From Candidatus Giovannonibacteria bacterium (lineage in GTDB: Bacteria; Patescibacteriota; Minisyncoccia; UBA11713; 2-01-FULL-45-33), in assembly GCA_016176295.1 (NCBI GenBank), contig JACOXN010000009.1:3798-67797 (forward strand): 64,000 nt of DNA, written 5' to 3'. A model generated the notes under the pieces. That model saw only the letters and a program-made list of their open reading frames with translations, was not told the DNA's origin and made no database searches. Within the stretch, counting starts at the first letter, position 1. Each line of letters opens with the position of its first letter. Shown piece after piece: positions 6,298 to 7,200 of the stretch. A program made the position numbers and the translations under genes.

Positions 6298-7200
6298 ATG
6301 GCCAACCGGCACCTTTCAAGATCAATAGCGATGCAGTCCCTCTTTGAATGGGATTTCTATCATGTTAAAGGCGAGGAGAAAGACCTGCACGTTATTCTTG
6401 AACGCAACGTTGAAGAGTTTGCTCCCGGCCTTGAGGACGGCGCGTTCGCGGAAAAATTGGGCAGAGGTTATCTGGACCACAGTGAAGAAATAGACGACAT
6501 CATAACAAAAGCCGCTCCGGAGTGGCCTATTTTGCAGATAGCCCCGGTGGATAGGAATGTTCTCCGCATCGGACTTTTCGAGCTTCTTTTCGGCGAAAGG
6601 AAAGAAGTCCCTCCGAAAGTCGCCATCAACGAAGCCATCGAGCTTGCAAAATCGTTCGGCGGGGACTCATCCGGAAGATTCGTAAATGGCGTTCTGGGAA
6701 CCGTTTACCGCGAATTGGGCGAGCCGGGAAAGGATGACACGGGAAAGAAAAGATATGAGCTCGACCTCGATAAGCTTCCCAAGGAAGAGCTGGGAGGAGC
6801 CGTGGTTTTTAGGCGGGACGGGAAAAAAATAATGTTTGCTCTGGTGCACGACGTTTTCGGTCGCTGGACTTTTTCCAAGGGCCATCTTGAAATCGGCGAG
6901 GATATTGCAACCGGAACGATGAGGGAAATACGCGAAGAATTGGGAGTGGTGGACCTTGAATTGGTAAAACAAATAGGAGATAACGAATACATTGCATTGG
7001 ACCCGGAAACAGGCCCCACGAGGAGGCATGTCAGTTATTTTTTGGCAGAGACGAAAGACAGGGAGCTGAAACTGGAGAGCTCCGGCGGGCTCGACGACGC
7101 GCAATGGTTCACTTTGGATGATGTCCGCGAGCTTAAAATGTACGATGACATCAAGCCGATATTGGATAGGGCCGTTGAAGAATTAAAAATTAAAGGATAA
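6298..7200 (+). CDS. nusB: transcription antitermination factor NusB fused to a C-terminal Nudix hydrolase domain
   Basis: N-terminal: [14 protein letters not shown]...[15 protein letters not shown]...[30 protein letters not shown]. C-terminal: a perfect Nudix box [23 protein letters not shown] at nt 6880-6948. Confidence 0.85.
   Translation: [300 protein letters not shown]

Follow-up and report, generated by a model that had tools for sequence, protein, structure and literature searches.

A NusB protein with a C-terminal Nudix domain resembling dinucleoside-polyphosphate hydrolases in Candidatus Giovannonibacteria and related Patescibacteria

To our knowledge, the NusB of nearly all organisms is small and has one domain only; in its canonical form it has ∼130–160 aa. 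Here we describe a NusB to which a linker and a 135-aa Nudix domain have been added. It is encoded by a single open reading frame (ORF) in a stretch of 64,000 nucleotides ('the window' below) of contig JACOXN010000009.1, which comes from an assembly of a Candidatus Giovannonibacteria bacterium. The architecture is already present in public databases, where it is labelled only as 'NusB'; our targeted full-text literature searches found no description of a NusB–Nudix combination and none of a link between Nudix proteins and Patescibacteria.

In the NusB–NusE–boxA complex, boxA RNA binds along the C-terminal helix α7 of NusB, with contacts of C6 to S128, U8 to F122 and G9 to K118 (PMC3177189). 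Judging from these contacts, the 5′ part of boxA should be nearest to the C-terminal end of helix α7. A NusB fold joined to an enzyme has a precedent: in RsmB/Sun, the 16S rRNA m5C967 methyltransferase, an RNA-binding domain of the NusB fold is attached to an rRNA-modifying enzyme, and the NusB half of our protein matches the N-terminal region of RsmB (E 3.6e-12). However, the NusB-like domain of RsmB is a paralogue with a methyltransferase as its partner, whereas here the extended protein appears to be the NusB orthologue itself.

On the Nudix side, non-catalytic modules are known generally, including ones that mediate protein interactions (PMC5389931). CFIm25/NUDT21 belongs to an RNA-processing factor; its box reads RL and EI where the canonical one has RE and EE, and the protein binds diadenosine tetraphosphate (Ap4A) with a Kd of 2.4 μM but does not hydrolyse it (PMC2425470). 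Two papers on TRPM2 present its NUDT9H domain as another non-catalytic Nudix module (PMC4974056; PMC6461439); active and inactive Nudix versions occur among TRPM2 orthologues. With CFIm25/NUDT21, NUDT9H, NrtR and DBC1 our protein shares a Nudix fold placed inside a multidomain or multisubunit regulator; in those proteins box glutamates were replaced (RL, RI) and ligand binding was retained. They belong, however, to other Nudix subfamilies and have other partners, and the box of the window protein, in contrast to theirs, has the fully catalytic composition.

The fused gene and its distribution

The ORF (Table 1) contains two Pfam domains, both above their gathering scores: NusB (PF01029) at residues 7–138 (E 3.5e-32, 112 bits versus a cutoff of 23.1) and NUDIX (PF00293) at residues 168–290 (E 2.8e-17, 63.4 bits versus 21.1). 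With the NCBIfam equivalog model TIGR01951 (nusB) the score was 119.9 bits, the cutoff being 88.35. The original prediction, made from the letters of the sequence, was of a normal NusB continued in one frame by a Nudix domain; domain search, the uninterrupted frame and the fused homologues described below all confirm it. The Nudix box, which it had called perfect, fits the consensus GX5EX7REUXEEXGU at all defined positions; all four box glutamates are intact, and none of the catalytic residues of the box is missing from the window protein.

The AlphaFold2 (AF2) model (mean predicted local distance difference test score, pLDDT, of 85) shows two confident domains with a disordered segment between them. 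The NusB half is built of helices across residues 2–140, with pLDDT mostly 80–93; the modelled C-terminal fold is the α/β/α one of Nudix and matches many Nudix structures in a Foldseek search. Residues 143–154 of the linker have pLDDT <50, and a predicted template-modelling score (pTM) of 0.50 for the whole model leaves the relative orientation of the two domains undefined. The linker starts with GEPGKDDT, a sequence that is also the C-terminal tail of unfused NusBs in the same clade. As boxA runs along helix α7 and the linker leaves from the end of this helix, the Nudix domain would be tethered at the RNA-binding site.

The fusion is real and not an artefact of assembly. NCBI lists an identical protein, named 'NusB [Candidatus Giovannonibacteria bacterium]', from a contig of 68,060 bp, and >270 distinct fused homologues were obtained by different sequencing centres in independent assemblies. 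In all 120 best homologues, drawn from NCBI, JGI, ENA and Logan assemblies (60–78% identity, 279–337 aa), both Pfam domains were in one ORF. A comparison of the Nudix half with 1.84 billion cluster representatives gave 35 full-length fused proteins at 27–50% identity, each the representative of a 50%-identity cluster; a clade-wide profile built on 20 distant members yielded 114 more. Source names among these 114 were Parcubacteria, Paceibacterota, Paceibacter, Moranbacteria and Nomurabacteria; fused GTDB species representatives include Giovannoni-, Niyogi- and Wolfebacteria.

A sole exception to the one-ORF architecture was seen among the homologues examined. Contig L026 (NCBI JACCDV010735530.1) is annotated with a separate nusB (133 aa) and a Nudix gene (141 aa), as one would expect if adjacent nusB and Nudix genes had been joined in the other assemblies by sequencing or assembly error. 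However, the split comes down to one in-frame TAA (at 941–943) in place of the conserved codon for Tyr137, beyond which the linker follows in the same frame; this TAA may be a sequencing error, the mark of a pseudogene or a real fission. Against so many fused proteins of independent origin the probability of a joining artefact is negligible. A stop codon hidden between the halves by a sequencing error, the danger named in the original prediction, and with it the two-gene explanation, was rejected on the same grounds: an uninterrupted ORF, an identical NCBI protein and independent fused homologues in the hundreds.

The most divergent fused members score below the Pfam NUDIX gathering threshold (P0213, 19.6 bits versus 21.1), and such members, e.g. 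at locus L023 (8001–8873), carry the NusB label only in precomputed annotation; domain-architecture surveys would therefore undercount the fusion. When free-standing versions beside nusB were sought, the apparent stand-alone top matches with the fused-type motif (e.g. P0157) were in fact fused genes, either split or incomplete. P0175, a genuine stand-alone Nudix relative, has an unrelated gene neighbourhood.

The NusB half and its gene order

The fused gene is most probably the orthologous housekeeping NusB. The order rpmF–nusB–rnc–smc recurs across the 24 related loci examined, and one syntenic locus, on a 930-kb contig, has a member only 33–40% identical. Ribosomal protein L32 was found by tblastn upstream of NusB in 20 of the 24 (it is also called there in L023 and L024) and RNase III downstream in 23, including three loci without the Nudix domain. 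No second NusB-like ORF was found within the 64-kb window.

The predicted model of the NusB half was superposed by Foldseek on the Aquifex NusB of the NusB–NusE–boxA complex (3r2c/3r2d) with a template-modelling (TM) score of 0.89 and a root-mean-square deviation of 1.7–1.8 Å. F128 aligns to Aquifex F122, which stacks on boxA U8, and D85 to Aquifex E81, a conservative change; F16 aligns to E. coli Y18 of the NusE interface (PMC3177189). Both F128 and D85 were invariant in the alignment of relatives. The protein thus has in common with canonical NusB the equivalog score, the seven-helix fold, the equivalents of F128, D85 and F16 and what appears to be the orthologous position, and the claim of a normal NusB half is borne out by sequence models and fold alike.

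Three relatives (L020, from Yanofskybacteria, L021 and L022) have a 164–171-aa NusB without a Nudix domain in the same rpmF–nusB–rnc synteny. In an approximate neighbour-joining (NJ) tree of NusB halves these three are nested among the fused proteins, a position explained most simply by secondary losses of the Nudix domain. As the unfused relatives share the synteny, adjacency of RNase III is independent of the fusion; the original prediction had read it as a sign of an rRNA-processing context, and it lends no specific functional support. Pairwise identities of the NusB and Nudix halves are correlated (r = 0.83 over 11,175 pairs), the NusB half being the more conserved one in 95% of pairs. From these comparisons the Nudix domain appears to have been gained early and retained under selection.

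At gathering thresholds no Rfam family was found in the 64 kb, nor was any tRNA by ARAGORN, an absence that is somewhat unusual; no rRNA leader or boxA was found in it. Counts of promoters and terminators over 5800–8200 were no different from those in shuffled sequences and are uninformative on operon structure.

The Nudix half: subfamily, pocket and catalytic box

By sequence and by predicted fold the Nudix half resembles hydrolases of dinucleoside polyphosphates (ApnA; Ap4A and Ap6A). Its best sequence matches in PDB were the Ap6A hydrolase Ndx1 of T. thermophilus (7.8e-9), human NUDT2 (4.5e-8) and Aquifex aq_158 (7.2e-8), with Chlamydia CT771 also among the best. The top Foldseek matches were 3i7u (aq_158; TM 0.89), 4mpo, 1vc8 (Ndx1; TM 0.87) and 4ijx, an entry described as 'E58A mutant'; mycobacterial MutT1/Rv2985 came next. 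Over these ApnA hydrolases identity was 25–31% and TM 0.74–0.89. Shared with them are the W-x3-K-G motif, the phosphate-binding lysines and the adenine-stacking aromatics, and the box of the window protein is complete. They differ in being free-standing (MutT1 has a histidine-phosphatase domain in addition) and in keeping their catalytic glutamates; unlike them, the fused family has repeatedly lost the equivalent of NUDT2 E58.

In the numbering of human NUDT2 (3u53), W190 corresponds to W38, K194 to K42, E210 to E58, R243 to K89 and Y282 to F128. In NUDT2 the residues K42, Y82 and K89 are P1-phosphate ligands, and the loop-5 tyrosine and F128 form the adenine-stacking pair (PMC4734340). The assignment of Y231 is approximate: it aligns with the tyrosine of Ndx1 and is three residues off NUDT2 Y82 (PMC4734340; PMC5389931).

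RppH and NudC, with which the original prediction had compared the domain, were considered as candidates and rejected. The curated RppH models scored far below their cutoffs (NF001936, 25.5 bits versus 118; NF001938, 16.7 versus 116), as did that for NudC (NF001299, 28.1 bits versus 158); as a structural neighbour E. coli RppH (7sp3) ranked only 43rd, with TM 0.60, the nearest proteins being the Ap4A/Ap6A hydrolases. The window protein sequence has no motif of the SQPWPFP type, which is specific to NudC.

The box is complete in the window protein and degenerate in roughly half of the fused homologues. Among the 35 diverse representatives E210 was present in nine (with V in eight, K in seven, I in five and A in four of the others), E213 in 20, R209 in 23, E201 in 24 and E214 in 32; in the 120 close homologues (≥60% identity) position 210 was E in 80, K in 32 and R in 5. 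Natural variants include P0003, with an RK box, and P0088, whose box positions read G-K-K-K-E-E-G (E201K, R209K and E210K). A complete canonical seven-position box was present in 7 of the 35 (degenerate in 28), in 74 of the 120 and in 59 of the 114 proteins of the second sample. Free-standing relatives had the glutamates: of 40 such sequences, 34 had E210, and E201, E213 and E214 were in 39 each. Fragments of fused genes, with the fused-type motif VHDxFGxWT, make up at least five of the six that lack E210.

A different set of residues stays fixed. W190, K194, D185, T191, Y231, G264, W270, Y282 and E214 were present in 114 of the 114 proteins of the second sample. Parsimony (Fitch) counts on an NJ tree of 155 fused proteins, built from their NusB halves, gave no change for W190, one each for D185, T191, K194, W270 and Y282 and three for E214, the median for a site in the domain being 25; E210 changed 40 times and switched between E and another residue at least 24 times. 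In these alignments, then, the catalytic glutamates are not conserved across the fused family. With the pocket residues near-invariant and the box glutamates changing, selection would seem to act on the nucleotide-binding pocket and on one metal ligand rather than on the complete set of catalytic residues.

Several other proteins have the same Nudix subtype in different company. P0162 (379 aa) joins it, with an RK box, to sigma70_r4 and a DnaA C-terminal helix-turn-helix, an architecture that looks like that of a regulator. In P0159 (577 aa) it follows a 316-aa N-terminal region of no assigned family and a partial NusB; P0247 (455 aa) combines it with PDZ domains and P0165 (244 aa) with a fragment of endonuclease V.

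We propose, with moderate confidence, that the Nudix module tethered to NusB recognises a nucleoside 5′-polyphosphate; the ligands and the bearing on antitermination given below are what we infer from sequence comparison. Recognition of a nucleotide or of an RNA 5′ end appears more likely than simple cleavage, and the regulator-like P0162, as a second fusion of regulator type, was counted in favour of such a role. The housekeeping NusB of a large Parcubacteria/Paceibacteria clade of Patescibacteria would have acquired a C-terminal Nudix domain of the Ap4A/Ap6A-hydrolase type, held on a flexible ∼25-residue linker that leaves the end of the boxA-binding helix α7. The conserved pocket (phosphate-binding K194 and K/R243, metal-binding E214 and the aromatics W190, Y231, W270 and Y282) would bind an Npn moiety beside the NusB–NusE–boxA complex. 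Candidate ligands are the 5′-triphosphate or NpnN-capped end of the boxA-bearing nascent transcript and a free alarmone of the ApnA type. In the window protein binding would be followed by Mg2+-dependent hydrolysis (decapping, removal of pyrophosphate or turnover of the ligand); with its four box glutamates intact, hydrolysis is predicted after binding, and this protein is probably still hydrolytic.

One could argue instead that it is catalysis of the RppH kind that has been selected, the Nudix domain removing pyrophosphate or NAD/Np4A caps co-transcriptionally from nascent rRNA leaders. Such 5′-end processing was the function put forward in the original prediction, and part of it stands. A 5′-end target is plausible, as NUDT2, of the nearest subfamily, is reported to hydrolyse 5′-triphosphorylated RNA and several caps, while RppH can hydrolyse Np4A caps (PMC9283932); with RppH the domain shares the Nudix fold and box and possibly a 5′-end RNA substrate. 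The linker leaves NusB beside the boxA site (PMC3177189), and the box is canonical in the window protein and complete in about half of the fused proteins. Catalysis, however, does not appear to be what was selected in the family. E210 is the equivalent of RppH E53, a residue whose replacement by alanine abolishes RppH activity in vitro as well as in vivo (PMC6061791). E210 is lost in 26 of the 35 diverse representatives and switches again and again in the tree, while the binding residues stay fixed. The low scores of the curated RppH and NudC models and the distant rank of E. coli RppH point the same way, as does the acidic composition of the domain (net charge −8 and pI 4.9 in the window protein; median net charge −7 over 275 proteins), and the RNase III neighbour belongs to an ancestral synteny that is not specific to the fusion. 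All told, we think this explanation unlikely.

The flexible linker, the lack of predicted contact between the domains and the loss of the Nudix domain in some lineages are what would be seen had a house-cleaning ApnA hydrolase merely been joined to a constitutive gene of a reduced genome, with independent domains and co-expression as the only gain; insertions into other core genes of the same genome (Nudix in a leucyl-tRNA synthetase, histidine phosphatase in an isoleucyl-tRNA synthetase, see below) fit this as well. But a fusion of convenience should keep its catalytic glutamates, as the free-standing relatives do, and here they decay around an invariant pocket; moreover, the fusion has been retained down to 27–40% identity, with the two halves co-diverging. 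We regard such a joining as quite improbable.

Relaxed catalytic residues could also indicate a module for docking to a protein, e.g. RNA polymerase, S10/NusE or a ribonuclease, with no nucleotide ligand; Nudix domains that serve protein interaction without catalysis are known (PMC5389931). The invariant residues, however, align with the phosphate-binding and adenine-stacking ones of Ap4A hydrolases (PMC4734340), and the metal ligand E214 is retained, which makes pure docking very improbable.

Several points weigh against nucleotide recognition by the NusB-tethered module. The identity of the ligand is drawn wholly from homology at 25–31% identity, and the NJ tree and Fitch counts come from short alignments, the tree being approximate. 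Most members keep E201 and E213, and nearly all keep E214; some variants that have lost E210 may keep a reduced activity or use another base. In this genome, with its perfect box, a purely catalytic role is possible. So acidic a domain would be ill suited to extended RNA binding of the RppH/Dcp2 kind, though a terminal polyphosphate or a small ligand could still be bound through bridging Mg2+. As no interdomain contact is predicted, allosteric coupling to NusB would be speculative. Finally, the three lineages nested in the fused clade without the Nudix domain indicate that it is dispensable in some backgrounds.

One could speculate further that the recognition module is a sensor, either of ApnA alarmones made by aminoacyl-tRNA synthetases or of the capped or triphosphorylated 5′ end of the leader. 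It would gate the assembly or persistence of the NusB–NusE–boxA complex, and residual hydrolysis in box-intact members would serve as a timer or reset. We consider this extension doubtful.

Other ORFs and insertions in the window, and implications

Within the syntenic block, a 360-aa ORF without a Pfam match lies between rnc and smc on the opposite strand. These two genes are adjacent in most relatives, and a weak (30%) homologue of the ORF was seen only in L006. Upstream of rpmF is a 325-aa ORF with no Pfam match and with a GGGKFDHH motif. A 241-aa ORF overlaps the end of the smc-like gene and has a weak match to the IS200-like Y1 transposase family.

Two aminoacyl-tRNA synthetases encoded in the window also carry inserted domains. 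In the leucyl-tRNA synthetase (LeuRS) a Nudix domain directly follows the CP1 editing domain, with a canonical box (GGTMNEGEEIETTARREIAEETGY). It belongs to another subfamily than the Nudix domain fused to NusB, the two aligning in the box region only, and it has weak similarity in PDB to plant NUDX1. Of the 80 related loci kept in the LeuRS scan, one, on a metagenome contig of 476 kb (L027), encodes another LeuRS with this insert, 38% identical and with its box intact; the others had matches in the LeuRS flanks only or lacked the insert. The isoleucyl-tRNA synthetase (IleRS; 'class I tRNA ligase family protein' in NCBI) contains a histidine phosphatase with the catalytic RHG motif (IIMRHGQAENN) and, later, an SHE motif. 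Mycobacterial MutT1/Rv2985, which was among the fold neighbours of the Nudix domain on NusB, is an ApnA hydrolase made of Nudix and histidine-phosphatase domains. Ap4A is made in the cell by aminoacyl-tRNA synthetases; through this the Nudix insert in LeuRS may be linked thematically to the NusB–Nudix fusion.

Table 1. Coordinates of the fused gene, its parts, its neighbours and other ORFs in the window, and of unfused NusBs in related loci
Feature	Coordinates	Strand	Basis or remark
nusB::nudix ORF	6298..7200	+	ATG start, 300 aa and stop codon; no internal stop or frameshift
NusB domain, residues 1–140, seven helices	6298..6717	+	PF01029, TIGR01951, AF2 model
Linker, residues 141–166	6718..6795	+	Low pLDDT; K/D/E-rich
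Nudix domain, residues 167–300, ApnA-hydrolase type (by resemblance)	6796..7197	+	PF00293, PDB sequence matches, Foldseek
Nudix box, residues 195–217	6880..6948	+	Canonical: G195, E201, R209, E210, E213, E214, G216
rpmF (ribosomal protein L32), upstream neighbour	5995..6240	+	PF01783, E 3.3e-15
rnc (RNase III), immediate downstream neighbour	7275..8012	+	PF14622, PF00636, PF00035
smc-like ATPase, next member of the syntenic block	9292..11448	+	PF02463 SMC_N, E 3.7e-68
325-aa ORF	4994..5971	+	
360-aa ORF	8056..9138	−	
241-aa ORF	11426..12151	+	PF01797, E 7.2e-6
IleRS, 1146 aa	27761..31201	+	
Histidine-phosphatase insert of IleRS, residues 493–659	about 29237..29737	+	PF00300 His_Phos_1, E 1e-26
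LeuRS, 973 aa	42353..45274	+	
NUDIX insert of LeuRS, residues 382–513	about 43496..43891	+	PF00293, E 1.1e-12
Unfused NusB, L020	6001..6495		GEPGKDDT, then short K/E-rich tail
Unfused NusB, L021	976..about 1490		GEPGKDDT, then short K/E-rich tail
Unfused NusB, L022	6001..6510		GEPGKDDT, then short K/E-rich tail

For specialists the finding is a moderate surprise: it offers a testable link of dinucleoside-polyphosphate and 5′-end chemistry with rRNA antitermination. The natural series of box-intact and box-degenerate orthologues, similar to that of TRPM2 NUDT9H, would allow binding to be separated from catalysis. Should the module read or process the 5′ end of nascent rRNA leaders, the complex that serves in rRNA antitermination and as a chaperone would turn out to have a further, new input. 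Should it read free ApnA, the long-debated dinucleoside-polyphosphate 'alarmones' would gain a concrete, testable effector. As a sensor, it would tie rRNA antitermination directly to signalling by dinucleoside polyphosphates, a 'Rosetta-stone' link between Ap4A signalling and the control of transcription elongation. A whole clade of ultra-small Patescibacteria would then have a nucleotide-polyphosphate module beside the boxA site of NusB.

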